From: Candidatus Omnitrophota bacterium
GTDB taxonomy: Bacteria > Omnitrophota > Gorgyraeia > JAGLLT01
Assembly: GCA_030632085.1 (NCBI GenBank)
Contig: DAOVJY010000003.1
Location: forward strand, 23,809 to 87,808
Direction of reading: 5' to 3'
Length of the DNA: 64,000 nucleotides
Shown: positions 6,976 to 56,206 of the stretch, piece by piece
Position numbering within the stretch: the stretch's first letter is position 1
Layout: every line of letters starts with the position of its first letter
Notes under the pieces: model-generated
Told to the model about the DNA's origin: nothing
Database searches by the model: none
What the model saw: only the letters and a program-made list of their open reading frames with translations
Translations under genes and position numbers: made by a program

Positions 6976-7029
6976 AGAAATAAAAGTGGTGCGTTCGAAG
7001 GGGGAACCTCCACGTTAAAAAAAGTAAAA

Positions 7030-7066: not shown

Positions 7067-7114
7067 ACAGAACAATATTTTCTGTTGAGATTTTAAAGGA
7101 AAGGTGGTAAAATT

Positions 7115-7405: not shown

Positions 7406-9874
7406 ATGAATATGTCAAAAAAAGAAAACAAAACGACAATAACCGATCCATTTCAAAATAAAAAGCATATCAATTATGCTCTTGTGGAATCTACGCGTCC
7501 GATGATGTATAAAGCTCTAAAATATTGGGGCAAAAAGCCGCACAATATTTTTAGAAAGTACATCGAAAATTATACAGAGAAAAATGAGATAGTACTTGAC
7601 GCTTTTGCGGGAAGCGGTATTGCCCCATTGGAAGCAATACAGGCAAATAGAAAGGCTGTTGCGATAGATCTCAATCCTATATCCACCTTTATGATTGAAA
7701 TACTTGCTAAGCCTCTTAATTATTCAAAGTTCAGAAAATATTACAGCGAAATTTTAACAAAACTTAGCGAGGAAGAAAGAAAATTAGGGGTTTTTATTAC
7801 TAAATGTGAAAAATGTGGAAGCACTGCTAGGGTAATAGGTATTCATTGGAATGGCGATACGCCAATACTTATAAGATATGAATGTCCATGCACAAAAGGA
7901 AACCAAGGCAAAAATCCTGATAATTTTGATATCCAAATTATTAAGAAATCAGAGAAATTAAAAATTCCTTATTGGTATCCGCAAGATGAGTTTCCAAAAA
8001 CAGATTTTTTCAAATCAGTTCGAAGGGGAATTGGTGATCAATATTATAAGCTTTGGACCAAGAGAACGCTTTATTTGCTATCATTTTTGTATAAAGAAAT
8101 TGAGGATATTGATGATGAAGAAATAAAAGATTTTTTGAAATTTGCTTTTATTTCAATGATTCACCTTGTCTCAAATATGGTTTCAGCAAGAAGACCAAAA
8201 AGCAAAAGACCAGATTCTGGTAGTTGGGGAAGACCAGCATTTATTTTGCCCAAAAGACACATGGAACAAAATCCAGTTATTTTGTTTCAAAGAGCTGTTG
8301 AAGATAGGCAAGGCGTCATAAAAGCAAAAAAATCATCAGAAAAATTACTTGCAAACAAGGTAAAAATAACAAAAAACTTTCAAGAATTAGCTAACGACAA
8401 AAAAGATAAAAATTTACTCATTTTGACGATTGACACTCTGGATTTATCAAAAAATATTCCAGAAAACAGCATTGATTATGTTATAACAGATCCGCCCTAT
8501 GGTGGACTAATCCAATACTTTAGCTTGAGCAGTCTTTGGGCAATCTGGCTAAAGCATAATAACAAAAAATTTGAAATTCCCTATGAGGATGAGATAACTA
8601 TTGAACACAAAAAGGATTTTGAACGATATCATAATCTTCTCACTAAAGCATTGCGCGAAATTTATAAAGTCCTCAAACCCGGGCACTACTTAACTCTCAC
8701 TTTTCACAACAGAGAAATTAATGTTTGGAACTCTGTTATTAAGGCTGGTGCGTATTCAGGATTTGTTTTTGAAAAAATTTTATATCAACCAAATAAACGA
8801 GCTTCGGAGGCAGGAGTTGCTATGCCTTACGGTAGCGCAATAAGCGATTATTATTTGCGATTTAAGAAACCTGAAAAAGCGGGTGTGTCTGATCATCAAA
8901 AAATGGATAAAGAAGAATACGAAAGAGTTGTCGTCAAAGCCACTAAAGATATTATTGCATTAAGAAGTGAACCAACAGAAATGACTTTTATTTTGAACGG
9001 TATTTATACCGAGTTATTTTCAACAGGAAGATTTTTTGAGGGTAGCCACGACGATATTGTAAATATTCTTAAAGAAAATATCGGAAAGGTATTTGTTCTT
9101 ATTGAAAACAAGGAAGGCAAACTCGGGCCCAAATGGTGGTTAAAAAATCCAGAGGATATGCTTTTCAAACAAGTACCTTTATCAGATAGAATTGAAAAAG
9201 TAGTGCTTGATATGTTGCGTGGAAATATTAAAGTTACTTTTGATGAAATTCTACAAAAATTATTTATCACTTTCCCGAACGGGTTAACACCTGACGCAAA
9301 GGGAGTTATAGAAGTATTGAAAGAATATGCAACGACGACTGGAGATGGTCGGTGGCGATATAAACCAGAAGTAAATTATAGAGATTCTGAGCACAGCGAA
9401 ATGATTTACTATTTATCCGAAATCGGCAAAAAGGCAGGCTATAAGGTTTGGATTGGGAGTAAAGAGCAGGGCGATACTTTTAAAGATGAGAAACTTTCAA
9501 AATATTGTACTGTGCTAAATCTTAAACTTTCCGGATTTTCCGATAAAGAACTTCGCCGAATCGCAATGATAGATGTCCTTTGGTGTGACGATACTTCTGT
9601 TAAATATGTTTTTGAGATTGAAAATAGTACAAGTATTACATCTGCGATAGAAAGAGCTTCGCATATTCCGGAAGAGTACGATGTAAAAAGATTTATTGTT
9701 ATACCAGAAGAAAGACAAAAAATGCTTGAGAGAAAAATGAATGAGCCGATGTTTCAAGAAGGGTATAATAAATATAAATGGCAAACTATTCATTATGACG
9801 CATTGAAAGATTTTTATAATCTTCACAAGGGCGGCAAAACACTTAAACGCGATGATTTGTCTAACTTAAAATAA
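7406..9874 (+). CDS. DNA methyltransferase (amino-MTase, motif I then TRD/zinc-ribbon then DPPY; alpha-like order) with a roughly 350-aa C-terminal extension
   Basis: Motif X/I VLDAFAGSGIAPLEAIQANRKAVAIDLNP. Cys4 zinc ribbon CEKCGS...ECPC. Motif IV ITDPPYGG, with LKPGHYLTLTFHN after it. The C-terminal region holds a possible PD-(D/E)xK-like stretch, IDVLWCDD...YVFEIENS. Confidence 0.75.
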   Translation: MNMSKKENKTTITDPFQNKKHINYALVESTRPMMYKALKYWGKKPHNIFRKYIENYTEKNEIVLDAFAGSGIAPLEAIQANRKAVAIDLNPISTFMIEILAKPLNYSKFRKYYSEILTKLSEEERKLGVFITKCEKCGSTARVIGIHWNGDTPILIRYECPCTKGNQGKNPDNFDIQIIKKSEKLKIPYWYPQDEFPKTDFFKSVRRGIGDQYYKLWTKRTLYLLSFLYKEIEDIDDEEIKDFLKFAFISMIHLVSNMVSARRPKSKRPDSGSWGRPAFILPKRHMEQNPVILFQRAVEDRQGVIKAKKSSEKLLANKVKITKNFQELANDKKDKNLLILTIDTLDLSKNIPENSIDYVITDPPYGGLIQYFSLSSLWAIWLKHNNKKFEIPYEDEITIEHKKDFERYHNLLTKALREIYKVLKPGHYLTLTFHNREINVWNSVIKAGAYSGFVFEKILYQPNKRASEAGVAMPYGSAISDYYLRFKKPEKAGVSDHQKMDKEEYERVVVKATKDIIALRSEPTEMTFILNGIYTELFSTGRFFEGSHDDIVNILKENIGKVFVLIENKEGKLGPKWWLKNPEDMLFKQVPLSDRIEKVVLDMLRGNIKVTFDEILQKLFITFPNGLTPDAKGVIEVLKEYATTTGDGRWRYKPEVNYRDSEHSEMIYYLSEIGKKAGYKVWIGSKEQGDTFKDEKLSKYCTVLNLKLSGFSDKELRRIAMIDVLWCDDTSVKYVFEIENSTSITSAIERASHIPEEYDVKRFIVIPEERQKMLERKMNEPMFQEGYNKYKWQTIHYDALKDFYNLHKGGKTLKRDDLSNLK

Positions 9875-39456: not shown

Positions 39457-39675
39457 ATGGAAATCGAAGTTTACAAGAGTAATGACAATATGTATGTCGC
39501 GGCCTGCCCCGAGTTAGAGCTCTTTTCTAAGGGCAGAACGGAAGAAGAGGCTATAAGAAGATTAGAAGATTCAATAAGTAGGCATTTATTAGCTCAGGAA
39601 AAAAGGGCTAAAGCTCAGGACGACATAAAGGATACGGCAAACTTCTATAGCTTGCACCATCCTCAAATACATTAA
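39457..39675 (+). CDS. HicB-like (UPF0150) antitoxin-fold protein, orphan
   Basis: YVAACPELELFSKGRTEEEAIRRLEDSI is typical of the HicB/UPF0150 fold. No adjacent HicA was seen. Confidence 0.5.
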   Translation: MEIEVYKSNDNMYVAACPELELFSKGRTEEEAIRRLEDSISRHLLAQEKRAKAQDDIKDTANFYSLHHPQIH

Positions 39676-39754
39676 AAAATTCCTCGGCCACGCTCGTCAT
39701 CGCAAGTATGAAGCTTGCTCAGGCGTTGCGGGCGAGTGGCGTGTACTTGAAAAC

Positions 39755-39830
39755 ATGTTTTATACTTATGTACTTAAAAGTGACAAAGATAATAAATTAT
39801 ATATAGGATTTACTACTGATATAATTAAAT
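39755..39830 (+). pseudogene. GIY-YIG nuclease N-terminal fragment (about 25 codons), truncated at the tRNA-Asn junction
   Basis: MFYTYVLKSDKDNKLYIGFTTDI matches the GIY-YIG (UPF0213) N-terminus; compare the intact paralog at 61745. The reading frame runs into the tRNA. Confidence 0.45.
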
Positions 39831-39906
39831 TCCTCGGTGGCTCAGTTGGTAGAGCGGGTGACTGTTAATCACTAGGTCGTAGGTTCGAGTCCTACCCGGG
39901 GAGCCA
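39831..39906 (+). tRNA. tRNA-Asn (anticodon GUU)
   Basis: Acceptor TCCTCGG/CCGGGGA, D-arm GCTCAGTTGGTAGAGC, anticodon loop CTGTTAA, T-arm GTAGGTTCGAGTCCTAC, then GCCA. Confidence 0.8.
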
Positions 39907-40317
39907 ACATACCCCAATGTTGATAACACAACATTGTTTATGATAGAACAACCTGAAAAAGGAGGTGATGTGTAATGAATAAGATAATATCTTGGATATT
40001 ATCTAAGATTACACCGCAACTCCAGCCTCCTCGATTTAAAACCCGGCCAAGTAAATAAAACTCTATTTACCGTCGGATACTTTTAAATAAGGAATTCTTA
40101 GGGTTGTTTTGAAGGATGTTTTGCTTTGGAAGAGTTAATGCTCTAAGCCGAAGTTCTGTTTTATTATTGAATTTCATAGAGGATAAAAGGCACAATAAAG
40201 TGGAGGTAGCAGATACCTTTAATGGAGCTTTCGTTGAAGCCTGCTACTAAAACATCCCAAGTTTAAATGTAAGCAACTTCATGCCATAACGCAAAACGGA
40301 GACATAACTCTTATTTC

Positions 40318-41118
40318 TTGTACATTTATATGAAAAAAGCACCTATAAAAAAATCCATTAAATTCGATTTGATAAATAATGCCAGAAGCTCCTTAAATCA
40401 TGCTGTTGCCCATCTTACTAACTTAGATGGAACAAAAGAAGATGATCTTAAGTTTGCAATTCGGGATGTTGCACATGTTGTTGAGCTTTTGCTTAAAGAA
40501 TGCTTGAGACGTATTCATCCAGCTTTTATCTGGCAAAATGTCGATAAATATCCCTCAGAAGCTCATACCGTGCACACAAATACGGCGGTTAGAAGACTCT
40601 TAAAAATAGGCGGCATCAATTTAGATGAAGAAGATCAACAAACAATAGATGCCTGTAGAAAATTTAGGAATAAGGTTGAACATTATGAATTTGAATTAAA
40701 TACCAAAGAAACAGAAGTTATTATAGGAAGGATGTTATCTTTTATATTTAATTTCTCGAATAAGCATTTAGGACTTAATTTAGAAAAAGAATTTCGTAGT
40801 GATGATACATGGAAAGCACTTATTGAGATGTATGAATTTTGGGAAGCGCATCATGTTGGAGTTGAGAAACAGCTAGAAAATGAAGGGAAGCATGTTGTTG
40901 AATGCCCTTCATGTGGGGCAATAACATTTGATCTTGAAGTAGGAGAATGCGCCTTGTGTGACCATACAGAGACAATGGTCAAATGTGATATTTGTGATGA
41001 AAAAGTGCTGGATTCAGAAATTGAAGCATGTGGAGATGCTGATATGGGCGATGAAGTTCTTGTTTGCAAAAGCTGTATAGAGGCTCAGGCAGAAGCTTAT
41101 TATGGAGAAGGATATTGA
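40318..41118 (+). CDS. hypothetical protein with HEPN-like Rx4H motif and C-terminal multi-Cys zinc ribbon
   Basis: CRKFRNKVEHYEF fits R-N-x-x-x-H. The C-terminus has CPSCG...CALCD...CDICD...CKSC. The likely start is Met at 40330. Confidence 0.45.
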   Translation: MYIYMKKAPIKKSIKFDLINNARSSLNHAVAHLTNLDGTKEDDLKFAIRDVAHVVELLLKECLRRIHPAFIWQNVDKYPSEAHTVHTNTAVRRLLKIGGINLDEEDQQTIDACRKFRNKVEHYEFELNTKETEVIIGRMLSFIFNFSNKHLGLNLEKEFRSDDTWKALIEMYEFWEAHHVGVEKQLENEGKHVVECPSCGAITFDLEVGECALCDHTETMVKCDICDEKVLDSEIEACGDADMGDEVLVCKSCIEAQAEAYYGEGY

Positions 41119-41239
41119 TAATGGGTTTATGTGAAAATGGATAAAACAAAGCTTAAAACAATAAAATCCCTCACTGCCCAATTTGAACAATTCCTCAAAG
41201 CCTGCAAAGGCGAAGGCGACACTACCATAAATGATGTCC

Positions 41240-42787
41240 TTAAGCGTCTTGAAGATCTAAAAAAGGAAACTTAACTCCAGGCGTATAATACACAATTTCA
41301 ATTTCTTCTTCTTTTATTATAATCTTCTCAATAAACTTCTTCAAAAACTCTCGTTTTTCTTGAATATTATTGCCTATAAAAGTTACTTCCATTTCTTTTC
41401 TAAAATTATCTATCATTGTTCTTGAGATGTGTATTGGCCGATGCCGGCTATTTAAATTCTCATAATACGCTATTTCTTCTTGAAGAGAATCTTTTTGACT
41501 TTTTAATTCTTTTAACCTCGGAGCAACAAGGGCTACATCAATAATCCCACTTTCAATAGCTTCATACTGTCTCATAACACGATTATGCAAATCGCTAGCT
41601 TTTTTCTTAAGGTCTGTTATTTTCATCCAATAGTCAGTTCTTAAAGATTTAGCAGCTTGGTTTATATCATCAACCAAATTTTTCATATTCTCATCTGAAA
41701 AAAGAAGATCTTTTACTCTTTCAATTATTTCGTTATCAAGTTCATCCGCACGCACTCTATAACCGGAACAAACATCTTTACCCTTTTTAGAATAAGTTAT
41801 ACAGTTGTAATAGGCATATTTTTTATCTCTGCCATAGCCGGTCACGCCATAAGTAGCATTACATTTACCGCATCTCATTAGACCGGATAGAAGATAAGAG
41901 CTTGAAGTCACTCTTGCTGGTTGATTTTTAGGTTGCCTTTTTTCAATAAGTCTTTGTACTTTGTTGAATAAATCTTCGCTTATAATAGCCTCGTGAGTAT
42001 TTTTAATAATAATCCACTGGTCTTTTGGCTTAAATTGCTTGCCGTAAGTTTTTTTATCCCTTTTATTAAATACTGTCCAGCCGATGTGCGATTCATTCCT
42101 CAATACATTTGCCACAGTGGATTTGCTCCAATTGCCGCCTGATCGTGGTTTATGATCATGGGTATTAAGATAAGTAACAATATTCTTAAGTCCATTGCCT
42201 TTGACGTATAATTCAAAGATAAGTTTAACTATTGCTGCTTCAGATTCATTGATTTCGTATTTTGTTCTTTGATTTTTATTTTCATCATAAATATGCACAT
42301 TTTTATAGCCGAAAGCTGCATATCCGCCATTTCGGTAGCCTTTCCTGGTATTTTCAATTAATCCTCTCAAAGTCTCTTGCCCTAAGACAGCGCTGTAAAA
42401 TTCATCAATAACCTCAATCATTCCTTCCATTAATTGTCCTTGAGGTGTATTATCTATTGGCTCTGATATTGAAATAACTTCGACTCCGCGCTTTTTTAAC
42501 ATAGCTTTATAGATGATGCTATCTTGCCTATTTCTTGCAAATCTGGATAATTTCCAAACTAAAATAGCTTGAAACGTTGGAAACTTTTTCTTAGTTTCTG
42601 CTATCATTTTTAAAAAAGCCGGCCTGTCAGTTGATAGAGCGCTTTCAGCTTCATCTATATATTCTTTATAGACTGCCATGTTATGCTTTAAGGCATATTC
42701 ATGAAGAAGTCTTAGTTGAGATGGTATGCTATTATTCTTATCAGCTTGTTGGTTACTTGATACGCGAGCATATAAAGCTACTTTCAT
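41240..42787 (-). CDS. large serine recombinase (resolvase/invertase N-domain + recombinase domain + zinc ribbon)
   Basis: N-terminus MKVALYARVSSNQQ carries the catalytic Ser. The protein is 515 aa, with a CGKCNATYG...YYNC zinc ribbon. Confidence 0.8.
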   Translation of the reverse strand: MKVALYARVSSNQQADKNNSIPSQLRLLHEYALKHNMAVYKEYIDEAESALSTDRPAFLKMIAETKKKFPTFQAILVWKLSRFARNRQDSIIYKAMLKKRGVEVISISEPIDNTPQGQLMEGMIEVIDEFYSAVLGQETLRGLIENTRKGYRNGGYAAFGYKNVHIYDENKNQRTKYEINESEAAIVKLIFELYVKGNGLKNIVTYLNTHDHKPRSGGNWSKSTVANVLRNESHIGWTVFNKRDKKTYGKQFKPKDQWIIIKNTHEAIISEDLFNKVQRLIEKRQPKNQPARVTSSSYLLSGLMRCGKCNATYGVTGYGRDKKYAYYNCITYSKKGKDVCSGYRVRADELDNEIIERVKDLLFSDENMKNLVDDINQAAKSLRTDYWMKITDLKKKASDLHNRVMRQYEAIESGIIDVALVAPRLKELKSQKDSLQEEIAYYENLNSRHRPIHISRTMIDNFRKEMEVTFIGNNIQEKREFLKKFIEKIIIKEEEIEIVYYTPGVKFPFLDLQDA

Positions 42788-42963
42788 TTTGCTACCACCT
42801 CCAATTCTTTTTGTTCAATGACGATATAATTATCTGTGTATATGGCTTGATTTTTAGCCTTGTTTGCGAAAAAATGAGCTAACTCTTTTACTTTAGATTT
42901 ATACCACTGCTCAACAGAGGGGTTATTATTTTTACTTATAGTCTCTGCAATCTTAACGTTCAT
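42784..42963 (-). CDS. small hypothetical protein translationally coupled to the serine recombinase
   Basis: Manually read 59-aa ORF, MNVKIAETISKNNNPSVEQWYKSKVKELAHFF... Its stop overlaps the recombinase ATG (ATGA). Confidence 0.35.
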   Translation of the reverse strand: MNVKIAETISKNNNPSVEQWYKSKVKELAHFFANKAKNQAIYTDNYIVIEQKELEVVAK

Positions 42964-43252
42964 TTTTCACCTCCAGGTCAATTGTGTTATAAATTCTTAT
43001 ATGGATATTGCAGGTTAGGTTATATTCTTTACTTAAAAGCCTAACTATTCTGCACATCCTTAATGCCATAGGCAAAATAAAGGGAAGAGAGGTACGCATC
43101 TTTTGCCGGTCCAAAATATTTATTCTCTCTTTGACAAGCGAAATATGTATCATGACAGGCCTCCTTTCGGTTATTTACTTTAAACTTTTAAAGTAAAAGG
43201 ATAAAAAATATATGGTTACTTTAAAGTTTTCAAGTAAATGTTTAAAAAAATA

Positions 43253-43429
43253 TTACTTTTCATATCTTTTAATATATTCGTCTACACTTTCCTGTGAAAA
43301 AAACTTATATTTTCCTGCAACAGACTCCGGCTTTATCCGGCCTTCTTTTATGAGCCAGTGTATACCCTGGGGTGTCTTGTTTAACATCTTTGCAACCTCT
43401 TTAACGGTTAATAATTTTTTCTCTTCCAT
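43253..43429 (-). CDS. Xis-like HTH DNA-binding protein (excisionase/HTH_17-like)
   Basis: Manually read 58-aa ORF, MEEKKLLTVKEVAKMLNKTPQGIHWLIKEGRIKPE... The pattern is typical of the excisionase/MerR-like HTH. Confidence 0.45.
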   Translation of the reverse strand: MEEKKLLTVKEVAKMLNKTPQGIHWLIKEGRIKPESVAGKYKFFSQESVDEYIKRYEK

Positions 43430-43860
43430 ACAACTATAATGGTAGCATATTACTTTAAAGTTGTCAAGTAAAATTTTTTATATTTTTATTTATTTGGTAA
43501 ATATTTGACAAACGCGCCAATAAGTTGTAGGATGTGACCAATACCTCTAAGGAGGTGGTGCTTTATTTCAAAGTTTTTGTCAAAGGGCCCAGGTCTCACT
43601 ATAGTCACATAGCTCACTGGAATGAAAATTGAATTGGTTTAGGAGTTGGGGCCCATCAAAAAGCCAGACCCATTAAATTATAGGACGTGGGCTATGACAT
43701 GTCCTATTCTTCTTGACACCTTTCTTGAAAATCAAATATATCACAATCAAGAGGATACAATACCTAAGTAATTGACAAAACACGACTACTTTGCTAAAAT
43801 TAATCCATGCCAAGAATAGCAAGAGCAGTAGTGTTAAATTACCCTCACCACATAATCTAA

Positions 43861-44106
43861 AGAGGTAATAGAAGGCAAGAGGTATTTTTCGAAGAAAGTG
43901 ATTATAAAAAGTATTTATACTTGATTAAAGATAATTCTGCATGCTTTAAATTAAAAGTATTATCTTATTGTCTAATGTTTGATCACATGCACTTAATAGT
44001 TATTTCTCAAGAGAAGGATAGTTTTGCCCAGGGCATTGGAGAAACTCACCGCAGTTACACCAGATATATGGTATTAAATCCAGTTGAAGCAAAAATCGCA
44101 AAGTAA
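43861..44106 (+). pseudogene. IS200/IS605-RAYT-like Y1 transposase fragment (HuH transposase remnant)
   Basis: HuH motif in YCLMFDHMHLIV and the RAYT C-terminal motif RYMVLNPVEAKIAK. It has no proper start and only about 80 aa of a roughly 140-aa protein. Confidence 0.6.
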
Positions 44107-44358
44107 GCTAAGGAAAGGACTATGAATGGTTAAAAAAGCGGAAGAGGGCAGGCAAAAAAGCGAATGTTTTGCTTAAGCCTAGTTTAATTTTATTTGACTT
44201 TATTATATTAACCAAGTATAATTAAGAGGAAATGAAGCAGTTTGAATCAAGCTTATTATTGGTATATAGTAGTGAGGTAATTTTAGGGTTATTATTATCG
44301 TTGCTGTTTTATTTTATTCCATTGGTTTTTGCTATGTTACATAAAGTTAGAAATTAAT

Positions 44359-44568
44359 ATGCCTACTCAAGAAAATAATAAAAGAGAAAATTTTTTAAAA
44401 GCTTACGCAAATCTTCCATTAAATACACGAAAAGAAGTCATTCTCATTTTAGATTTAGGAGAAAAAAAACAACCTATTACTTGGGAAGTTGCTTATCTTG
44501 AAATAAGAAATAATACGCAGGAGAGTAAAAGAATTTTAGAAAAATTAGAAAAATTAGGATTAATTTAA
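44359..44568 (+). CDS. small hypothetical protein (first gene of a three-gene cassette)
   Basis: MPTQENNKRENFLKAYANLPLNTRKEV... Its stop overlaps the next start (TAATG). Confidence 0.35.
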   Translation: MPTQENNKRENFLKAYANLPLNTRKEVILILDLGEKKQPITWEVAYLEIRNNTQESKRILEKLEKLGLI

Positions 44569-44825
44569 TGGCAAGGGAAGAAGAATTAAAAAAATCAGGA
44601 AAAATTTCAGAAGATCTCAAAAATTTAGTAATTTATAGGCTTGACACTCTACCTTCGGATAAAAAAATTTCTATTGGTTCATCTGGCGAGTTTTCTAAAT
44701 CCGAATTAATTGAGCATGTAAAAAGAGGGGATGGTATTGGGCAACAAATCGCCGATATTGAAATAACCTTTTTAAGAGCTTTAAAGGATGGGACTTTGTT
44801 GGAAGATATGATCCGATTAGATTGA
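44568..44825 (+). CDS. small hypothetical protein (second gene of the cassette)
   Basis: ORF of 85 aa, translationally coupled on both sides. Confidence 0.4.
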   Translation: MAREEELKKSGKISEDLKNLVIYRLDTLPSDKKISIGSSGEFSKSELIEHVKRGDGIGQQIADIEITFLRALKDGTLLEDMIRLD

Positions 44826-44837
44826 TGGCAGAATTAT

Positions 44838-45485
44838 ATGGCAAAAACACTACTAATTACAAGACCAGAGCATGATTGTGCAACTATCTATCTTTCCAAA
44901 TGGAGCAAAGAAATAATACAAAAAGCAAAAAAGAAAGGGCTTTGCGTTATAGATCTTCACCGTGATAAGGCAAATAGAGATAGAGTTGTTGGAACTTTAG
45001 AAAAAACAAATCCTAAATTAGTCGTTTTAAATGGTCATGGAAGTGAAAATTCTGTTAAGGGCCACAAGGATGAGGTTATTTTGAAGATCGATGATAAGAA
45101 AGCCATTAAAGATAAAATTATCTATGCACGTTCTTGTAAGTCTGCAAAAAAATTAGGACAAAAAATCATTACTAATGGAGCAAGGGCTTATCTGGGATAT
45201 ACTGAAGATTTTATCTTTACATATAGCGTAAACAAAACATCTAAACCCCTAGAAGATAAAGAGGCAGCTTTGTTTTTAGAACCCTCAAATCGCATTCCTC
45301 TCTCTTTGCTAAAGAATCATACCGCAGGGGAAGCTAACGAACAGTCAAAGGGATTGTTTAAGAAAAATATTGAAAAGCTGTTAGTCGAAGGCCCTTCTTC
45401 CGAGCATTATAGTGCTATTAGTTATTTATACTGGGATATGATTAATCAAGTTTGCCTAGGAGACAAAGAAGCGGTTCTTGCATAA
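44838..45485 (+). CDS. putative caspase-fold (peptidase C14-like) protein, minimal
   Basis: A hydrophobic strand is followed by HG (LVVLNGHGSEN), then about 50 aa later by IIYARSCKSAKKLG. This is the His/Cys dyad spacing of caspase/metacaspase/CHAT domains. The call rests on motifs only. Confidence 0.35.
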   Translation: MAKTLLITRPEHDCATIYLSKWSKEIIQKAKKKGLCVIDLHRDKANRDRVVGTLEKTNPKLVVLNGHGSENSVKGHKDEVILKIDDKKAIKDKIIYARSCKSAKKLGQKIITNGARAYLGYTEDFIFTYSVNKTSKPLEDKEAALFLEPSNRIPLSLLKNHTAGEANEQSKGLFKKNIEKLLVEGPSSEHYSAISYLYWDMINQVCLGDKEAVLA

Positions 45486-45697
45486 CTTTTTGCTACTGAT
45501 TGTTACAATGTGCCTACCCGAGCAAAATTTTTTTCGGTAACAACTTATCTCCAAACAGTAATGCTTAATTATTCCCTGAGTGGGTATTTAAACAAGTGTT
45601 AAATTAGCTTCTTCAAATAGCACTTTTATAATACTTAAATCAATTTCAAGGCTAATATCCCTGTTGCGAAACAAGTCATATATGGGGAGCCAAAATC

Positions 45698-45740
45698 AAA
45701 AAAAGGTCCGCTCATTAATTTGGGCGGATTTTTTTATTTT
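45698..45740 (+). terminator. terminator-like hairpin immediately after the GGGGAGCCAAAAT repeat
   Basis: AAAAAAAGGTCCGC-loop-GGCGGATTTTTTTATTTT. Confidence 0.5.
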
Positions 45741-45876
45741 AAGGACAAGAGAGCGTAAGCCCAAAAAGGGGTTTTAAGGGGAAAATTATTATTTTGCTAT
45801 TGACAGAATAAGCAATGTATGTTAATATACTGTTCGTATGTTAAATATGTTTACTTATTTTTAAAGGAGCAAACAA

Positions 45877-46089
45877 ATGAACGACAAGAAGGAAAGATTT
45901 AAAAGGTTGGCAACAAAAAGGACTAATACTATCCTGCAGAAAATTAAAGTATTAGGAAATTGTTCCAATAGGCAGATATACGACTATACCGAAGAGCAAA
46001 TAAATAGTATTTTTTTTGTAATAGAAAGAAAAGTTAAAGAGGCTAAAGCAAAGTTTCATTTTTCGAAAGAAGATAAATTTAAATTATAA
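45877..46089 (+). CDS. small hypothetical protein upstream of the GHKL ATPase
   Basis: ORF of 70 aa. An AAAGGAGCAAACAAATG RBS precedes it and an AGGAG RBS follows for the next gene. Confidence 0.4.
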   Translation: MNDKKERFKRLATKRTNTILQKIKVLGNCSNRQIYDYTEEQINSIFFVIERKVKEAKAKFHFSKEDKFKL

Positions 46090-46104
46090 GATTAGGAGAT
46101 TACC

Positions 46105-48507
46105 ATGGATACAAAGAAACTATTTTGGTCAATATTTAGCGCCAAAGATGAAGCTGCATTACATAATATAGTTTTACGGAATGAGTTGTTAAGTAATAAT
46201 CATAATTGGTTTCCCTATGGTGGCAGAGATAAAAATGACAGAAGTAATTTTGGTACTTTTGAAAATCAACAAAGTAATCCTGTGCCGGCATTAATAGAAA
46301 AGGTAACCAATTCCATAGACTCTCTTCTATTAAAACAATGTAAATTAATGAAAATTGACCCTAAGTCAAAAGAAGCTCCTTCGAATATGGCTATCGCGGT
46401 TGAGAAATTTTTCGATATAAAAAATGGCGATTTTAGTGAAATATCGCAATCTGGGCGGAGAAGCATTGCAGAAGATATTCAGGTTATAGCTGAAGGTGAT
46501 AAGCAAATGCCCAATTTGTTGATATATGATTATGGCGAAGGCCAGCATCCAGACGACTTTCATAAGACGTTTCTGTCTCTTTCCAGGTGTAATAAAACAG
46601 ATATACCCTTTGTGCAAGGAAAATATAATATGGGATCCACTGGAGCAGTAATATTTTGTGGAGACCATAGGTATCAGTTGATTGCTTCAAAATTATGCAA
46701 CGAATTAAATACAAAAGCATCTAATGATTTTGGTTTTACTTTGGTAAGAAAACACCCTTTAACTGAAGAAGAAGAGGGGCGCTTAAAAAGTAGTTGGTAT
46801 GAATATTTTACTATTGATGGAAAGATCCCGCGCTTCAGTATTAAAGAGATAGATTTAGGCTTATACAAAAGAAAATTTACAACAGGAGCTATCGTCAAGC
46901 TATATTCTTATGGATTACCTAAGGGCTCACGATCATATGTTACGTGGGATCTTTGGAGAGATTTTAATCATTATTTATATCATCCGGCTTTACCTTTTCT
47001 AGTTTATGAAAAAAGGTGGTCAAATCAAAAAACTCCATCTAAGCCTGTATTGGGTAACAAAATCAGACTAACGCTTGATGATAGAGACAAGAAGGAGGAT
47101 GAGAGTCTCACTATAACAATTTCGGATTCTAAAATAGGTGAAGTTCCAATAGAGACACATGTTTTTAAACAACATGTTGACCAAAAGGAATTCATTAATA
47201 ACAAAGCTGTGGTTTTTACGCAAAATGGCCAAGTTCATGGATTTTTGACAAGATCATTTATTTCTAAAGTCCTTGGTTTTCCTTTATTACGGGATCATAT
47301 GCTAATACAAGTTAATTGTACCAAGATTAAAACATCTGTTCGCCAAGATCTCTTTAAGGGGTCAAGAGATAGGTTGAATGAAGGCATAAAAACAGAACTA
47401 TTAATAGATAAAATTACTGTTGCATTGAGAGATAATGAAAAATTAAAGCTGCTAAATCAAAATCGAAAAAATAGAATATTGAGAGAAAGCACTGAAGATA
47501 AAAACTTACTGGCAACCGTGCTAACTAATCTTTCCATTGATAAAGAAATAATGAAGTTACTTAAAAATAATGAGGAATTTAATTTATTTAAGAAACTAAA
47601 TAAATTTAAGAAGGAAGATAAAGCTGATAAGCAAAAAGAGAACAAAAAAGCAAAATATATTTCCAAAAGGTTCCCATCTATATTCAAAATCAATATAGAT
47701 GAAAATGGCTTCGGGAAAAAACTAAAAAGCGTTCCTTTGGGTGGGAAGGGAATAATTAGGTTTGCGACAGATGTTGAAGACGAATATCTTTTTAGACCTA
47801 AGGAAAAGGGAGAATTGGAACTTGCTGTTCTCGGCATAAAATCTAATGGAGGCGGCGGAGATGATGGCTCAAACCCTTCTAAAGTAGAGGATATATTCGA
47901 TATTACTAAAGCAGGGCCAACAGACAATTCAATAAAAATTACATTTGAACCTAAAGCCAATGTGAACGTTGGCGATGAAATCGAATTAAAAGCTCGACTA
48001 TCTTCTCCGAGCGGAGATTTAGAATCAATATTTTGGGTACGGATTATAGATCCGCAACAAACAGGTCAAAAAGTTAAAGAAAATAAGGAAAAAGATAATA
48101 TTGCACCCCCAATTCCTATTAGAGTTTTTGAGTATGCAGAAAAAAAAGAAGATAAAACGTGGGAAGATTATGGCTGGGGCGGCAATGATATAACTAAAAT
48201 TATTACATCGCAAGTTGGGAAGGGTGAAACAGCAATAGAAGCTATAGCAGTTAATATGGGTTGTTTTGCATTAAAGAGATTCCTTTCTAAGAAGCAGTTT
48301 AAAACAGAAGAAGAAATAAGAACAATTAAAAACAAATTTTTCATAACTGTATATCTACACAGCCTGTTTCTATACAGCATTCTTGATAGAATAAATAAAG
48401 ACGAAAATTGTGACACAGAGATAGATCCAGATGATATTGTTCCGATAATTTTTAAACCTTATAGCAACTTTCTTCTTTCTTCGAGTATGATTGAAAGTTT
48501 GATATAA
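46105..48507 (+). CDS. GHKL-family (HATPase_c_3-like) ATPase domain protein, 800 aa, with an uncharacterised C-terminal region
   Basis: N-box-like VPALIEKVTNSIDSLL. G1 LLIYDYGEGQHPDDF. G2 GKYNMGSTGAVIF. These are Bergerat-fold ATP-binding motifs in the first 200 aa or so. The remainder has no recognisable motif apart from a Gly-rich GGGGDDG segment. Confidence 0.5.
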   Translation: MDTKKLFWSIFSAKDEAALHNIVLRNELLSNNHNWFPYGGRDKNDRSNFGTFENQQSNPVPALIEKVTNSIDSLLLKQCKLMKIDPKSKEAPSNMAIAVEKFFDIKNGDFSEISQSGRRSIAEDIQVIAEGDKQMPNLLIYDYGEGQHPDDFHKTFLSLSRCNKTDIPFVQGKYNMGSTGAVIFCGDHRYQLIASKLCNELNTKASNDFGFTLVRKHPLTEEEEGRLKSSWYEYFTIDGKIPRFSIKEIDLGLYKRKFTTGAIVKLYSYGLPKGSRSYVTWDLWRDFNHYLYHPALPFLVYEKRWSNQKTPSKPVLGNKIRLTLDDRDKKEDESLTITISDSKIGEVPIETHVFKQHVDQKEFINNKAVVFTQNGQVHGFLTRSFISKVLGFPLLRDHMLIQVNCTKIKTSVRQDLFKGSRDRLNEGIKTELLIDKITVALRDNEKLKLLNQNRKNRILRESTEDKNLLATVLTNLSIDKEIMKLLKNNEEFNLFKKLNKFKKEDKADKQKENKKAKYISKRFPSIFKINIDENGFGKKLKSVPLGGKGIIRFATDVEDEYLFRPKEKGELELAVLGIKSNGGGGDDGSNPSKVEDIFDITKAGPTDNSIKITFEPKANVNVGDEIELKARLSSPSGDLESIFWVRIIDPQQTGQKVKENKEKDNIAPPIPIRVFEYAEKKEDKTWEDYGWGGNDITKIITSQVGKGETAIEAIAVNMGCFALKRFLSKKQFKTEEEIRTIKNKFFITVYLHSLFLYSILDRINKDENCDTEIDPDDIVPIIFKPYSNFLLSSSMIESLI

Positions 48508-48571
48508 TATACAGAGAAATACAAAGATAAAGAGAGAGGCACCTTTTTATTTATAAATAGGAGACAAAAAA

Positions 48572-49276
48572 ATGAAAGAAAAATTGTGTTCTATGGTGAA
48601 TAGGGAAGTAAAATTAAATCATCAAACGTTGAAAGTAGAAAAACAAAACGCGAAAGCTTTAATTGAAGGCTTTTTGAAAAAGTCTGAACCCAAGAGGTGT
48701 TACTCCTCTATATTTACCGCTCATTTAAGGGCAGTGTCACTGCAAAGAGATTTTCGTTGTGTACCAAAATTATTAACAACATTTAGGGCGGGCCCTAGGG
48801 CGATATATCCTTTAAGTTATATTGGCGAGAGTTTGCATGCTGAAGGATATGCGACGAGCGGAACACACATTGCAATTTTAGATCGAATTTTTCATATAGA
48901 AAATAATATGAAAATTTGGGAAAACTTATGCAATAACGGCATCTTCGACATATGGGAACCAGAAGCGCCTTATAATAGTCTTCGCGAAAAAGACGGACTT
49001 CGCGACAAAATTGATCCCATGATTCTCTTGTTAAGAATATTTGAGATTGATAAAGATTTTAGTGATGAAATATATTTAGGTAGATATTCAGACAGCATTG
49101 TAGGGAGTCGCGTTAGAATAATTTGCCCTATAATACCAGCTGATAAAGATGATAAATTTAGTGCTGATTATGACGGAACTTACTACTTCAAAGACATTAT
49201 TGAAAAAATAAGAAACGGGATATCAAATTACTTAATTCAAGAAGAAAAACTGTGTGATACTTCTAAAATGTATTAA
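48572..49276 (+). CDS. hypothetical protein (234 aa), partner of the GHKL ATPase
   Basis: ORF with no recognised motif. It lies in the same orientation 65 nt downstream. Confidence 0.4.
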   Translation: MKEKLCSMVNREVKLNHQTLKVEKQNAKALIEGFLKKSEPKRCYSSIFTAHLRAVSLQRDFRCVPKLLTTFRAGPRAIYPLSYIGESLHAEGYATSGTHIAILDRIFHIENNMKIWENLCNNGIFDIWEPEAPYNSLREKDGLRDKIDPMILLLRIFEIDKDFSDEIYLGRYSDSIVGSRVRIICPIIPADKDDKFSADYDGTYYFKDIIEKIRNGISNYLIQEEKLCDTSKMY

Positions 49277-49492
49277 AGGTTCCACCGAATGAAAATCGGG
49301 AAGATACAATACTTAAATGATCAAGAATGCAAAAAAGCGGGAGGGCAGGTTCTTTGGGAAAGGGTCGTCCAAGATTGATTGAATTTCGTTTCCCTTACGG
49401 ATATACATCTTTGCAAGTAGTTGCATTACTTGAGATTTGATTTTTGAAGTGATAAAATATAGGATAAATAAGGCTTATAGCCTGTAGAAACA

Positions 49493-49846
49493 TTGAAGGG
49501 GGAGGATTTGATGAAAAAAATTAAAACAAAGATGAAAAAGCAAATTACCAAAGCGATAGGAAAGCAGTTTAAAAAGGTTATTGCGAAGAACGTAGATGCT
49601 GCTGACCCAAGCGCTTTAAATGGCGCTGCAAAACTGGCAGAGGAAATAGCTTTAAAGACTTTTGGTATAAAGGCAACTGCAAATGCAAAATCTAAAATGA
49701 CTACATCAAAAACAAAGAGCAAAGAATTTAAAATAAAGATTAAGGGTATGGAAAAAGCAGCATGGGATGCTTTAAAGGGAGCAGAAATAGATAAAGCCCT
49801 TAAGGAGCGATTAAAAGTAGAGGTACGCTTTACTTACAGATTTTAA
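49493..49846 (+). CDS. lysine-rich low-complexity hypothetical protein
   Basis: ORF of 117 aa with a GGGGGA RBS and a composition of K/A/T repeats. Confidence 0.35.
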   Translation: MKGEDLMKKIKTKMKKQITKAIGKQFKKVIAKNVDAADPSALNGAAKLAEEIALKTFGIKATANAKSKMTTSKTKSKEFKIKIKGMEKAAWDALKGAEIDKALKERLKVEVRFTYRF

Positions 49847-50030
49847 CTAAGTGATTACAAAGCGTAAGGCATGAAAAAAGTTCGTTATCTTTTAACTGTA
49901 CATCAAACCAAGCAGATACAGTAAAAAATAACCTCTTTTCTATAATTCTAGGAGGAGCACAATATTTAAAAAAGTCCTAAAAGTTTAATGGGATGTTTTT
50001 GCCTTTTTTGTTATCAACATCGTCTAGTCC

Positions 50031-50179
50031 GGGGAGCCAAAATTTAAAAGGCCGCATGAAAGTGTGGCCTTTTAAATTATTAACCTCTGGAAACTTGACG
50101 AGAACCTACGACTTGAAGAATGGTTCTGACCGAGCAGAGCGAGGAAATGCCGAACAAGTTATTTAAATTCGGCGCCTAC
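50031..50179 (+). repeat. copy 1 of a roughly 150-nt structured direct repeat, beginning with the tRNA-Asn 3' core
   Basis: Aligns with 51178-51330. Three stems are conserved, with compensatory changes in the first (GGCCGCA/TGTGGCC versus GGCCGTG/CGCGGCC). Confidence 0.6.
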
Positions 50180-50498
50180 CCGGAGAGCAAACATTTGTAA
50201 CTTATTTATTTTAAATAAGGTACAATAAGCATACCTTTCTATTTTTAGATGGGCTTTTTCTTTGGTTTGCTGTAAAATTTAAAGATTTATAAGTAATTAA
50301 GTTAATGGTATTGAATTTAGTGATTAGTGTGGTATAATTGGTATAGATGGAATGAGGAAATGTACTAGACAAAAAGTTCTTGACAGATTGAATGTTATAA
50401 GGTAATATTACTTATCATCCCAGCGAAGTCTCGTATTTCGTTGGCCCCGAATTCCTTAATGGATTCGGGTTTTTTTATATATAAAATGGAGAGAAAAT

Positions 50499-51110
50499 GT
50501 GAATAGAGTTGCTGTTTTTGTTGACGGGTTTAATCTTTATCACGCCTTGGACTGTGATTTAGTATACCATAAATATAAATGGTTAGACCTTGAAAAGTTT
50601 TCAAAATGCTTTACTTTACCTGGAGATACCCTTGGTGATGTTTTATATTTTACTGCATATATAACTTGGAACTCTCAAAAATTAGCTAAGCATCAAATTT
50701 ATATCAAAGCTCTGCAATTAGTTGGTGTCACTCCTGTCTTTGGAGCCTTTAGAATGAAAGATACTGTTTGTCGAATATGCCATAGAGCATATAAAAAACC
50801 TGAAGAAAAACAAACAGATGTTAATATTGCGATAAAGCTTTTTGAAACTGCAATATCTGATACTTGGGATACTGCTTTGATTGTATCTGGAGATAGCGAC
50901 CTTATCCCGGCTATACAAGCTGTTAAAAGAACCTTTCCAATCAAAAGAATAGGCATTGTCATACCAATTGGGAGAAGAGCGGAAGAATTGAAAAAAGTTG
51001 CAGATTTTCATAGTAAGGTAAAGCAAAAACATTTAAAAACCTGTCAATTTAATGATGTTATAACGCTTAATAATAATCATACCTTAAAGCGTCCTGATTC
51101 TTGGAAGTAG
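50499..51110 (+). CDS. NYN-domain (LabA/DUF88-like PIN-fold) nuclease
   Basis: N-terminus MNRVAVFVDGFNLYHAL with the conserved D, plus SGDSDL. A cysteine-containing insert CRICHRAY is present. Confidence 0.65.
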   Translation: MNRVAVFVDGFNLYHALDCDLVYHKYKWLDLEKFSKCFTLPGDTLGDVLYFTAYITWNSQKLAKHQIYIKALQLVGVTPVFGAFRMKDTVCRICHRAYKKPEEKQTDVNIAIKLFETAISDTWDTALIVSGDSDLIPAIQAVKRTFPIKRIGIVIPIGRRAEELKKVADFHSKVKQKHLKTCQFNDVITLNNNHTLKRPDSWK

Positions 51111-51177
51111 TTTAAATGAAAAAGGGCAGTTGTATTTCATAGTTAGTATGCAGAAAGTTGCGAATCTCGTTCAATGC

Positions 51178-51330
51178 GGGGAGCCAAAATTTAAAAGGCC
51201 GTGTGAAAGCGCGGCCTTTTAAATTATTAACCTCTGGAAGATTGACGAGAACCTTGTGCCGTAAGGCACAGGTTGAGCGACCGACCGCAGCGAGGAAATG
51301 CCGAACAAGTTATTTGAAGTCGGCGCCTAC
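51178..51330 (+). repeat. copy 2 of the roughly 150-nt structured direct repeat
   Basis: See copy 1. The ORF-track 51158-51382 spans it and is probably spurious. Confidence 0.6.
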
Positions 51331-51649
51331 AAACTTAGCATTATATAGCTTGTTTAAGCGTTTATTTACTTACTCACGTTGATTTCTAAGCATGCTTAGA
51401 CGTTTCTCTTGCAGTCCTCAGCATTCTTATTGCTTTCCTTTTAACTCTTGCCATAGCCGGTAAGGCGGTATCAGGGGTAGGCTTAAAATAGTGACAAATT
51501 AGTAGAAATAGTGTACAATACATGCTCGTTACATAGTAATTAATAAAATGAAGATGTTTAAAGACCGCTAGGTTTAGAAGCATTTGCCTAAGTGGTTTTT
51601 ATTTTTTAACACAATTAAACAAATAAACACAAAAGTAGGTTATTAGATT

Positions 51650-55526: not shown

Positions 55527-55913
55527 TTGACAAATGTACCAATTATGATACACTTAGAAAAGATGAAGATAGAAAATCATTTACCAGTTTTATTTTATAG
55601 AACCGACACAGGAAAAGAACCCGTGAGGGAATGGTTACAATTTCTATCTAAGAAGGAAAAAAAGCTAATAGGTGAAGATATTAAAACTGTTCAATTCGGT
55701 TGGCCGTTAGGAATGCCGTTGGTGAGAAAATTAATTCCCGGAATATGGGAAATACGAACGCAATTAGATAATAAAATTTCACGGGTTTTATTTACCATTT
55801 ATGAAAACCATTGTGTTCTTCTCCATGGATTTATTAAGAAAACACAGAAAATACCAAAGCAAGATTTAGATTTGGCTATTCAACGAATGAAACAAGTAAA
55901 AAAAGGCGGCTAA
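55527..55913 (+). CDS. type II toxin, RelE/ParE superfamily (gp49/HigB-like, COG4679)
   Basis: A small basic protein of about 110-128 aa with the HigB-like pattern ...RVLFTIYENHCVLLHGFIKKTQKIP... It is followed at a 2-nt gap by an HTH antitoxin. Confidence 0.55.
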   Translation: MTNVPIMIHLEKMKIENHLPVLFYRTDTGKEPVREWLQFLSKKEKKLIGEDIKTVQFGWPLGMPLVRKLIPGIWEIRTQLDNKISRVLFTIYENHCVLLHGFIKKTQKIPKQDLDLAIQRMKQVKKGG

Positions 55914-55915
55914 TT

Positions 55916-56206
55916 ATGAAAAAAAAGAATAAGCATATAGGCAGTAATTTTGATAATTTTCTCCAGAAAGAAGGTATATTAGAGGAAGCACAGGCCGCGG
56001 CCGCTAAAAGAGTTATTGCGTTTCAGATCCAAAAGATTATGAAAGAAAAACACATCACTAAAACAGAGATGACGAACCGAATGCATATAAAAGGCCGTAT
56101 GCAATTAAATAGATTGCTTGATCCAACCAACAAGTCTGTAACCCTTTTGACGTTAGAAAAAGCTGCTACCGCGCTTGGTAAAAACTTAAAAGTTCAGTTT
56201 GTCTAA
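55916..56206 (+). CDS. HTH (XRE-like) antitoxin, HigA-like (COG5606)
   Basis: HTH region KHITKTEMTNRMHIKGRMQLNRLL. Confidence 0.55.
   Translation: MKKKNKHIGSNFDNFLQKEGILEEAQAAAAKRVIAFQIQKIMKEKHITKTEMTNRMHIKGRMQLNRLLDPTNKSVTLLTLEKAATALGKNLKVQFV

Follow-up and report, generated by a model that had tools for sequence, protein, structure and literature searches.

Positions 39831 to 51330 of a 64,000-nucleotide stretch of DNA from a Candidatus Omnitrophota bacterium (contig DAOVJY010000003.1; hereafter the window; G+C content 37%) hold a tRNA-Asn gene, a gene for a large serine recombinase (LSR) and a series of modules separated by copies of the tRNA 3' end. The window belongs to a 349-kb scaffold from an ENA metagenome, and exact protein matches and the nearest genome loci place it in Omnitrophota. 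We favour the reading, with a probability of roughly 70%, that this block is a composite integrative island belonging to a family of LSR elements with the tRNA-Asn 3' end as their target. The LSR family is undescribed; the kind of element is already well known, as a composite resembling either the staphylococcal cassette chromosome (SCC) or a cis-mobilizable element (CIME). An earlier note on this DNA had divided the block at the repeats into three tandem elements, A (up to 45684), B (up to 50031) and C (up to 51178), and had regarded them as satellite or mobilisable islands depending on a recombinase in trans. Instead, cognate recombinase arms pair the tRNA junction with the copy at 50031, which points to one unit of 10.1 kb (39907-50030) comprising segments A and B.

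Copies of the tRNA-Asn 3' end resemble serine-integrase attachment sites

The 3' end of the tRNA-Asn gene, GGGGAGCCAA, is present in exactly four copies in the 64-kb window (39898, 45684, 50031 and 51178), all of them on the + strand in intergenic DNA. Shuffled sequences contained a mean of 0.09 copies, and four or more were reached by 0 of 100 shuffles, so that the repeats are non-random. Identity extends over 12 nt (CCGGGGAGCCAA) between the tRNA copy and the copy at 50031, and over 13 nt (GGGGAGCCAAAAT) among the three downstream copies. Each core is followed by a stable hairpin (-9.4, -19.6, -23.1 and -24.5 kcal/mol; z-scores between -3.2 and -8.1). The recurrence of the core at these three downstream positions and the terminator-like hairpin behind each of these had been noticed before, and both observations hold. 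Rfam searches at gathering as well as permissive thresholds returned the tRNA as the sole match.

Similarity is not confined to the core. A conserved left arm of 22 nt, in register, is common to the three downstream copies (repeat family D3), and the copies at 50031 and 51178 head a direct repeat of ~165 nt with ~90% identity (repeat families D1 and D5). We therefore read the downstream repeats as putative 31-nt attR-type sites of a serine integrase rather than as bare tRNA ends, each composed of a 12-nt arm, a 10-nt spacer and the 9-nt core GGGGAGCCA. The tRNA-Asn gene (39831-39906) would be the integration target, supplying the B half of attL. The sites and the sequences flanking them are as follows:

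39831-39906, + strand: tRNA-Asn (GTT), intact, CCA encoded (ARAGORN; Rfam tRNA, 69.8 bits)
39898-39928, + strand: putative attL; core GGGGAGCCA at 39898-39906, then ACAT, then P' arm TACCCCAATGTTGATAACA
39915-39936, + strand: hairpin CAATGTTG..CAACATTG plus TTT, overlapping the P' arm (-9.4 kcal/mol, z -3.2)
45662-45760, + strand: putative attR-type site 'rep2'; variant arm TGTTGCGAAACA, spacer AGTCATATAT, core GGGGAGCCA (45684-45692)
50009-50039, + strand: putative attR ('rep3'); family arm TGTTATCAACAT, spacer CGTCTAGTCC, core GGGGAGCCA
50040-50194, + strand: F1, native tRNA-Asn flank; AAAT, terminator hairpin and pseudo-tRNA 'F-module' (..CCTCTGG..GACGAGAACC..GCGAGGAAATGCC..CCTACCC)
50182-50194, + strand: degenerate second core GGAGAGCAA plus ACAT, at the end of F1
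51156-51186, + strand: putative attR-type site 'rep4'; variant arm AGTTGCGAATCT, spacer CGTTCAATGC, core GGGGAGCCA
51187-51330, + strand: F2, second native-flank copy, ~90% identical to F1, truncated after ..GGCGCCTAC

The arms indicate which two sites belong together. The 12-nt end of the P' arm, ATGTTGATAACA (39917-39928), is the perfect reverse complement of TGTTATCAACAT (50009-50020); ten bases separate the former from the tRNA core on its left and the latter from the 50031 core on its right, and the window contains exactly two perfect copies of this inverted 12-mer. Joined via the core, both arms yield a 53-bp imperfect palindrome, which would have the size and shape of a serine-integrase attP. 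The site at 50009-50039 is thus the predicted cognate partner of the attL at 39898-39928. The hairpin that overlaps the P' arm, whose CAATG..CATTG pairing is retained in relatives, probably replaces the terminator of tRNA-Asn itself.

The two remaining sites carry variant arms (TGTTGCGAAACA and AGTTGCGAATCT), which match each other at 10/14 and the family arm at 8/14 positions. Closest to rep4 is the first site of the related contig L221 (arm AGTTACTAAACT, spacer CGTCCAATAT). On the 3' side of the rep2 core follow AAAT, a terminator hairpin (-19.6 kcal/mol, z -7.3) and a short stub that resembles a native flank (GGACAAGAGAGCG); this stretch differs from the flank of the current host. Two further candidates for ends were rejected as probable chance matches: a P'-like motif at 45819-45830, considered as left end of B, is out of register and overlaps a promoter-like site, and a dyad (51155-51165/50193-50203), considered as arms of module C, has asymmetric spacing (12 nt versus 1-2 nt).

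Related elements reside at tRNA-Asn in other Omnitrophota

Comparison of LSR contexts covered seven independent elements. The LSR gene adjoins the 3' end of tRNA-Asn in 6/6 contexts for which the tRNA-side junction was recovered, and wherever the relatives' loci reach that far, tRNA-Asn lies downstream of DnaX and RecR, as it does in the window. An alignment of this junction from the window and four relatives (alignment A2) displays the core, four variable bases and then the invariant TACCCCAATGTTGATAACA in 5/5 sequences; L219 and L221 have the same attL arm, with changes in that of L221. On the right of the LSR module there are one or more sites made up of TGTTATCAACAT, a 10-nt spacer like CGTCCARYCC and the core. 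Both arms flank the LSR modules in L208, L210, L211, L214, L218/L219 and L221, and the arm and spacing of rep3 recur downstream of the recombinase in L208, L210, L214, L218/L219 and L221.

Relative to the window, the LSR is 74-87% and the accompanying HTH_17 protein 79-88% identical, as compared to 44-51% for host DnaX and 39-52% for host RecR. This far better conservation of the LSR shows that the element is horizontally mobile and that its association with tRNA-Asn stems from its own specificity. The cargo differs per element and comprises an AbiE plus AEP-helicase set, a type I restriction system with a PLD nuclease, MNT-HEPN, Fic, lipase or NYN genes. At the same tRNA, the relatives compared carry different cargo or none, which shows that the block is not ancestral, in line with the earlier note.

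Tandem arrays, in which 2-5 attR-type sites separate modules devoid of a recombinase, are present in L208, L210, L219 and L221, and here too the earlier expectation is borne out. Two family sites located 1.56 kb apart enclose the AbiE pair alone in L208, three sites form the array in L210, a minimal 3.4-kb element is followed by additional cores with terminators in L219, and in L221 single Fic and TPR genes lie between three sites. Stacking of recombinase-less modules behind a single recombinase module is thus a property of the family. In the two distal sites of L221, GGGGAG is followed directly by TTT and not by ..CCA. These sites may be junctions formed at a tRNA gene that does not encode CCA; if this reading is right, modules carry along junctions of former hosts, and the crossover occurs within GGGGAG. 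Among IMG/VR viral contigs, no relatives of the LSR, the attP, the P' arm or the variant arm were found.

Other mobile sequences have entered the same locus. Group I introns in tRNA-Asn were detected by Rfam (74-88 bits) in L104 (4601-4854), L208 (13089-13316), L210 (13590-13788), L211 (14596-14794) and L214 (9273-9471), and hence in 4/4 of the relatives with LSR elements tested in this way (L208, L210, L211 and L214). The introns explain why ARAGORN misses the tRNA in L208-L213; the tRNA-Asn of the window is uninterrupted. Next to the tRNA in L211 (14841-16907) and in L212, the gene for the beta subunit of pyruvate:ferredoxin oxidoreductase carries an intein (Pfam Intein_splicing). Intein, group I introns and the GIY-YIG genes described below mark this locus as unusually rich in selfish elements.

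The recombinase and its small partners

The conserved module of the family consists of the LSR gene and an overlapping ORF of 59/60 aa, sometimes an ORF of 65-77 aa, and in most elements an HTH_17 gene. Its counterparts in the window are:

41240-42787, - strand: LSR, 515 aa, full length, N-terminal YARVSS
42784-43153, - strand: two small ORFs of 59 and 66 aa, located upstream of the LSR gene and overlapping it
43253-43429, - strand: HTH_17 (excisionase/MerR-like) protein, 58 aa (Pfam, 2.3e-10)
43173-43483, no strand: operator-like repeats TTACTTTAAAGTTTTCAAGTAAA, three copies, two of which form a palindrome (repeat families D4, I3 and I7)

The LSR contains the Pfam domains PF00239 Resolvase (2.3e-30), PF07508 Recombinase (1.9e-29) and PF13408 Zn_ribbon_recom (1e-14), and the catalytic serine motif MKVALYARVSSNQQ is readable near the N terminus of the translation. 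In the PDB, it matches the catalytic domain of TP901-1 (residues 2-131 align) and the C-terminal domain of the A118 integrase, and identity to the nearest phage serine integrases amounts to ~33%. More than 70 homologues of equal length share 66-89% identity, and all named ones are from Omnitrophota; the family of 515-aa LSRs to which the protein is assigned has 74-89% identity and occurs in many members of this phylum. Both the serine recombinase and the Xis-like HTH protein, which had been recognized from the letters alone, are thereby confirmed.

An ORF of 59/60 aa occupies the same position in L208-L213 and L218-L221. With identities to relatives of 34-58% and 39-47%, respectively, the 59-aa and 66-aa ORFs are conserved partners and candidate directionality or regulatory factors. 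Regarding a recombination directionality factor, the 59-aa ORF and the HTH_17 gene adjoin the LSR gene, and no family assignment ties either of them to directionality. The HTH_17 protein is encoded in most of the elements (L211-L213 lack it), and the TTACTTTAAAGTTTTCAAGTAAA repeats that flank its gene are likely operators of a switch controlling the recombination module.

A more distant LSR was observed in L112 (VSSL01001239.1; oriented 5511-7780). This protein of 558 aa is 45% identical, is accompanied by an ImmA-like peptidase, and its gene lies directly 3' of tRNA-Asn and its terminator in the same orientation. Targeting of tRNA-Asn may extend past the subfamily of 515-aa LSRs.

Native flank, pseudo-tRNA modules and segment C

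What follows the attR at 50031 can be recognized by comparison with unoccupied sites. A metagenome scan with the pattern core plus AAAT..AAAGG recovered, among the matches listed, mostly unrelated ordinary tRNA-Asn genes and a repeat from human gut. One group of tRNA-Asn genes has AAAT and a terminator directly 3', then ..TTCCTG..GACGAGAACC..GTGAGCTTGTCC..GGAAGTCCTGCCC and often a small GIY-YIG gene. F1 and F2 align with such tRNA-Asn flanks of other Omnitrophota, with 35 invariant columns (alignment A5). Unoccupied sites, in which AAAT, the terminator and the F-module follow tRNA-Asn directly, exist in other Omnitrophota, and in L162 RecR is encoded just upstream, like in the window. In L203, L195 and L145 the F-module ends in a second copy of the last 20-26 bases of the tRNA, followed by another terminator; this lineage thus holds natural duplicates of the integration site.

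F1 ends in the same manner. Its terminal sequence is CCTACCCGGAGAGCAAACAT (50175-50194), as compared with CCTACCCGGGGAGCCAACAT at the tRNA, and F1 matches the attL junction of the tRNA at 20/22 positions. The second core of F1 is, judging by this match, probably a secondary attB that is now occupied, and the TTGTAAC.. behind it can be read as a P' arm lacking 9-10 bases. These features are suggestive of segment C being what is left of an earlier family member that had inserted at this secondary site. Segment C would start at 50182 and not at 50031, since 50031-50194 represents native flank.

Pseudo-tRNA F-modules with a length of ~70 nt were observed 3' of tRNA-Asn in L203 (reverse complement, 780-1000), L195 (reverse complement, 7340-7850), L145 (1-420) and L164. 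Their 5' end resembles the 5' end of a tRNA and their 3' end the T-arm and acceptor end; they are sometimes arranged in tandem and sometimes enclose a GIY-YIG ORF of 75-95 aa between two copies of the tRNA 3' end. The F-modules may have been left behind by a small selfish GIY-YIG cassette with tRNA-Asn as its target.

In the window, the 5' side of tRNA-Asn has a related appearance. The sequence AAATTCCTCGG, which consists of the tRNA start and the three preceding bases, is duplicated 150 nt upstream (39677-39837), and the two copies enclose an F-module-like leader as well as the first 25 codons of a GIY-YIG gene (MFYTYVLKSDKDNKLYIGFTTDIIK). This fragment reads directly into the 5' end of the tRNA. 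Fragment and duplication indicate that this side of the tRNA was rearranged, too.

A composite that would integrate and move as one piece

Mechanistically, the LSR would recombine an attP of ~53 bp, predicted as TGTTATCAACAT-CGTCTAGTCC-GGGGAGCCA-ACATACCCCA-ATGTTGATAACA, with the acceptor/CCA end of tRNA-Asn. Crossover would occur near the central AG of the core, which fits a centre of symmetry at the A of GGGG-A-GCCA. The tRNA would be left intact because the core is shared, and the hairpin of the element would take over as terminator. Excision of A+B should generate the attP TGTTATCAACATCGTCTAGTCCGGGGAGCCAACATACCCCAATGTTGATAACA and the empty site ..GGTTCGAGTCCTACCCGGGGAGCCAAAATTTAAAAGGCCGCATG. 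The 45684 site is probably a fossil attR inside the composite. Its terminator and stub are unlike the flank of the current host, which suggests that accretion brought in B and that the whole composite travelled together. Alternatively, A may be excised alone via 45684, an event that should leave the attP TGTTGCGAAACAAGTCATATATGGGGAGCCAACATACCCCAATG and the empty site ..CCTACCCGGGGAGCCAAAATCAAAAAAAGGTCC. Past the attR would follow the native flank F1, ending in the pseudo-tRNA second core at 50182, and then a decayed older element, now reduced to the NYN cassette, between this core and the variant attR at 51178, with the second flank copy behind it.

Measured against this model, the initial partition into three segments stands insofar as the repeats delimit modules, one bearing a recombinase and others lacking one, with defence-type cargo and split by relics of attachment sites. 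It probably fails for A and B, which, judging by the cognate arms, look like a single 10.1-kb unit, B having no left end of its own. Nor does the block appear to need a recombinase in trans: the family's residence at tRNA-Asn and the conserved arms identify the LSR in A as the cognate enzyme, which would act in cis.

Several points weigh against this interpretation. Neither an excision product nor an empty site or alternative junction came to light for the species of the window. In 80 genome loci, the surroundings of the flanking ABC-F gene contained no tRNA-Asn, and neighbours were shared with only one same-species contig, L003, which begins inside the ABC-F gene; exact protein matches of ABC-F and RecR came from the source sample only. 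Logan contigs break in the tRNA and in the LSR gene, breaks that are uninformative as tRNA sequences shared between organisms would cause the same. Moreover, the first site 3' of the LSR module has a variant arm in the window and likewise in L221, and such a variant site could be the working attR of some members, making A alone the unit. B has no recognizable left end, and that of C consists of a 13-nt junction match plus a P' arm that requires loss of 9-10 nt. The variant cores behind the inferred crossover position could equally be due to mutational decay. Finally, a defensive role of the cargo is predicted from sequence, and the published representative of one family, HEC-09, gave no protection when tested (10.1101/2024.01.29.577857).

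The neighbourhood differs between the two same-species contigs at a further position. A Gp49/HigB-like toxin-antitoxin pair (window 55545-56206) is lacking in L003 (3588-3731), the sole same-species contig, in which the genes flanking this position are 143 nt apart.

Alternative explanations

A, B and C may be three independent elements that integrated successively, B and C being satellite-like or mobilisable and excised separately in trans. The three downstream sites indeed have the same arm/spacer/core layout in register, relatives hold small recombinase-less modules between sites, such as the 1.56-kb AbiE module of L208, and accretion of the CIME type is an established process (PMC5704250). 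However, the sequence to the right of 45684 resembles a native flank (AAAT plus terminator), leaving B without attL, the cognate inverted arms join the tRNA with 50031, and 50031-50194 is native flank and thus outside C. As a rule, LSRs join attP to attB or attL to attR and no other pairs, and an excision between two attR sites is disfavoured by these pairing rules. The proposed satellite nature finds no footing either: genes for replication, packaging or capsid-related functions are absent, Pfam revealed no phage satellite genes of the phage-inducible chromosomal island (PICI) or P4-like type among the 19 main ORFs of 39457-51583, and there are no IMG/VR relatives. We therefore consider separate elements unlikely.

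A more dynamic scenario, which we rate as rather improbable, is a serine-recombinase cassette platform in which the LSR and its small partners excise, capture and reshuffle single cassettes, making it a functional analogue of the integron. The tRNA-Asn end and the pseudo-tRNA modules of the flank would then provide several copies of attB, and each defence cassette would retain its own attR-type site with arm, spacer, core and terminator. As to an integron proper, Pfam detected no tyrosine recombinase domain, and the repeats do not fit GTTRRRY.

Even less credit goes to the idea that the repeats are mostly native pseudo-tRNA/terminator modules and the recombinase a mere passenger; the routes of cargo entry envisaged in this case, homologous recombination with the flanks or activity of GIY-YIG or RAYT (REP-associated tyrosine transposase) proteins, are equally doubtful. 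Repeated cores with little or nothing between them do exist (the unit in L203 measures 105 nt, and the inserts of L145 and L195 measure 190 nt and 363 nt, the latter with a GIY-YIG ORF), the NYN cassette follows tRNA-Asn in L217 without recombinase or second core, and RAYT genes recur nearby. Nevertheless, native pseudo-tRNA modules lack the recombinase-type left arms and spacers of the copies at 45684, 50031 and 51178, these arms accompany the LSR gene in seven independent elements, and the LSR is much more conserved than host genes. Because of the recombinase-type arms we also reject the notion that the repeats derive solely from decayed tandem tRNA genes.

That the ~165-nt repeat including the core is a structured non-coding RNA gene or a cassette recombination hairpin, comparable to an integron attC or a repetitive extragenic palindromic (REP) element, is highly implausible: the core can pair with the downstream CCTCTGG around the terminator, with compensatory differences between copies (z -3.5 and -5.1), but there is no match to an Rfam family, the same blocks are plain tRNA-Asn flank in other genomes (alignment A5), the outer helix is missing from the 45684 copy, no integron integrase is present and the RAYT gene is a pseudogene.

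Cargo of the modules

The genes carried between the sites are candidate anti-phage genes:

40318-41118, + strand: HEPN-like protein with C-terminal Cys-rich ribbon, in the left cargo slot (PADLOC PDC-S64, 5.6e-27; HEC-08, 1.6e-6)
43807-44106, + strand: RAYT/IS200-like Y1 transposase pseudogene with in-frame stop and truncated end (Y1_Tnp, 6.5e-4, below the Pfam cut-off)
44329-45485, + strand: three-gene cassette, 79, 85 and 215 aa (ORF calls)
45877-48507, + strand: 70-aa protein and 800-aa GHKL-type ATPase, with their own promoter-like site at 45800-45828
48572-49846, + strand: two cargo ORFs of 234 and 117 aa that are not conserved alongside the ATPase
50380-51110, + strand: NYN (PADLOC HEC-09) cassette; promoter-like site 50380-50408, structured leader with intrinsic terminator 50420-50476, ORF 50499-51110

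Most of the gene assignments made in the earlier note gain support. The HEPN-like zinc-ribbon protein, in addition to its PADLOC matches, shows a weak Zn_ribbon match and a readable RNKVEH motif (Rx4H), and a homologue with 81% identity fills the same slot beside attL in L211-L213. The RAYT fragment is corroborated as a pseudogene. RAYT/IS200-like Y1 genes, intact or decayed, were observed among the cargo or by tRNA-Asn junctions in three unrelated contigs, namely at 43807-44106 of the window, at 2137-2796 of L221 (intact Y1_Tnp) and at 1-542 (oriented) of L098.

The 79/85/215-aa cassette, formerly described as having a caspase fold, yielded no match in Pfam, NCBIfam, PADLOC or the PDB; an AlphaFold single-sequence model of the 215-aa protein has a pLDDT of 39, and the cassette is missing from the elements of relatives. 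The same holds for the right-hand cargo as a whole, that is the RAYT pseudogene, this cassette, the 70-aa plus 800-aa pair and the two ORFs, for which the relatives' elements have no counterpart.

The assignment of the 800-aa protein as a GHKL ATPase rests on readable N/G1/G2-box motifs and on more than 1500 homologues across phyla, including Muriicola soli and Goldbacteria, some of which carry PF13589; the protein itself had no match in PADLOC, NCBIfam or the PDB. The small upstream ORF is a conserved partner in Muriicola soli and in a JGI contig. The pair constitutes a candidate two-gene defence module, so far uncharacterised.

The NYN nuclease is confirmed (Pfam, 9.5e-17; HEC-09, 2e-60 over 203/203 positions). 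In L214, the NYN cassette, with promoter and leader as in the window, sits beside attL of an intact element, and in L217 it is located 3' of tRNA-Asn, with neither recombinase nor second core. The published HEC-09 representative did not protect against the phages tested (10.1101/2024.01.29.577857). The leader (window 50410-50476; L214 9914-10003; L217 9921-10003) lies between the promoter-like site and the ribosome-binding site. Its hairpin varies in sequence and retains its pairing, with 4/19 predicted pairs being compensatory among the three sequences, and is followed by an intrinsic terminator. The leader may act as an attenuator or, in the manner of type III toxin-antitoxin systems, as a small RNA that partners the RNase.

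Comparison with known systems and implications

In SCC and its enterococcal counterpart, the Enterococcus cassette chromosome (ECC), serine recombinases insert at the 3' end of rlmH, and repeats of the site delimit tandem modules, some of which lack a recombinase (10.1101/336396; PMC6222049). The island described here, too, sits at the 3' end of a conserved housekeeping gene and leaves that gene active, conserves the recombinase module only, varies its cargo and stacks modules in tandem. It differs in its target, which is the tRNA-Asn acceptor/CCA end rather than rlmH (orfX), in employing a single LSR rather than ccrAB or ccrC, and in its Omnitrophota host and candidate defence cargo in place of resistance genes; the likeness is one of mechanism only.

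According to the CIME model, a decayed element keeps its att sites and is accreted in tandem by a functional element, with possible co-mobilisation and gene capture (PMC5704250). Elements of the ICE/IME-CIME kind (integrative conjugative and integrative mobilizable elements; ICESt1/ICESt3) share with the island a decayed att-bearing module and tandem accretion at the 3' end of a target gene, but rely on tyrosine integrases and conjugation modules, whereas an LSR and no transfer genes were found here. A recombinase of matching specificity does adjoin the modules, namely the LSR in A, and the sites are homologous and in register. A CIME keeps both attL and attR; B has an attR only, and the sites of C are a variant attR on the right and, on the left, a junction at 50182-50203 that is merely degenerate. 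As B lacks a left site of its own, we do not class it as a CIME.

With the LSRs of phages (A118/LI, TP901-1, phiC31, Bxb1), the recombinase has in common its domain architecture, an attP of ~50 bp with inverted half-site arms and small accessory proteins encoded next to it. Unlike these, the island has no phage genes and no relatives on viral contigs, and its core is a stretch of 9-12 nt in a tRNA gene. The general features of serine-integrase sites, i.e. short att sites, inverted arms and a small core, are present, with arms conserved in seven elements. Serine-recombinase IMEs usually disrupt dispensable protein genes and not tRNA 3' ends (PMC5704250), and in mycobacterial prophages tRNA sites are used by tyrosine integrases (PMC10654092). 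A serine recombinase at a tRNA 3' end hence appears unusual, although no systematic literature search was made on this point. Among the cargo, the HEPN domain with zinc ribbon and the NYN RNase domain agree with PADLOC PDC-S64/HEC-08 and HEC-09, which are candidate families only. A preprint on complete Omnitrophota genomes reports recombinase-rich hypervariable loci without mention of this LSR family (10.64898/2026.06.07.730766).

Taken together, our analysis defines a family of serine-integrase islands that is apparently widespread in Omnitrophota, a phylum for which nearly all knowledge comes from metagenomes, and specifies precise sites that can be tested: an attP of 53 bp, an attB at the CCA end of tRNA-Asn and a crossover likely at the central AG. 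The current understanding is not overturned; rather, the logic of SCC and CIME is met with in a new lineage and at a new target. Practical interest, as tools for genome engineering, attaches to serine integrases whose natural sites are compact and lie in a universally conserved tRNA. The islands ferry candidate defence genes between hosts whose housekeeping proteins are 40-50% identical, and the stacked fossil junctions, some with non-host flanks, may record earlier sites or hosts of the modules.

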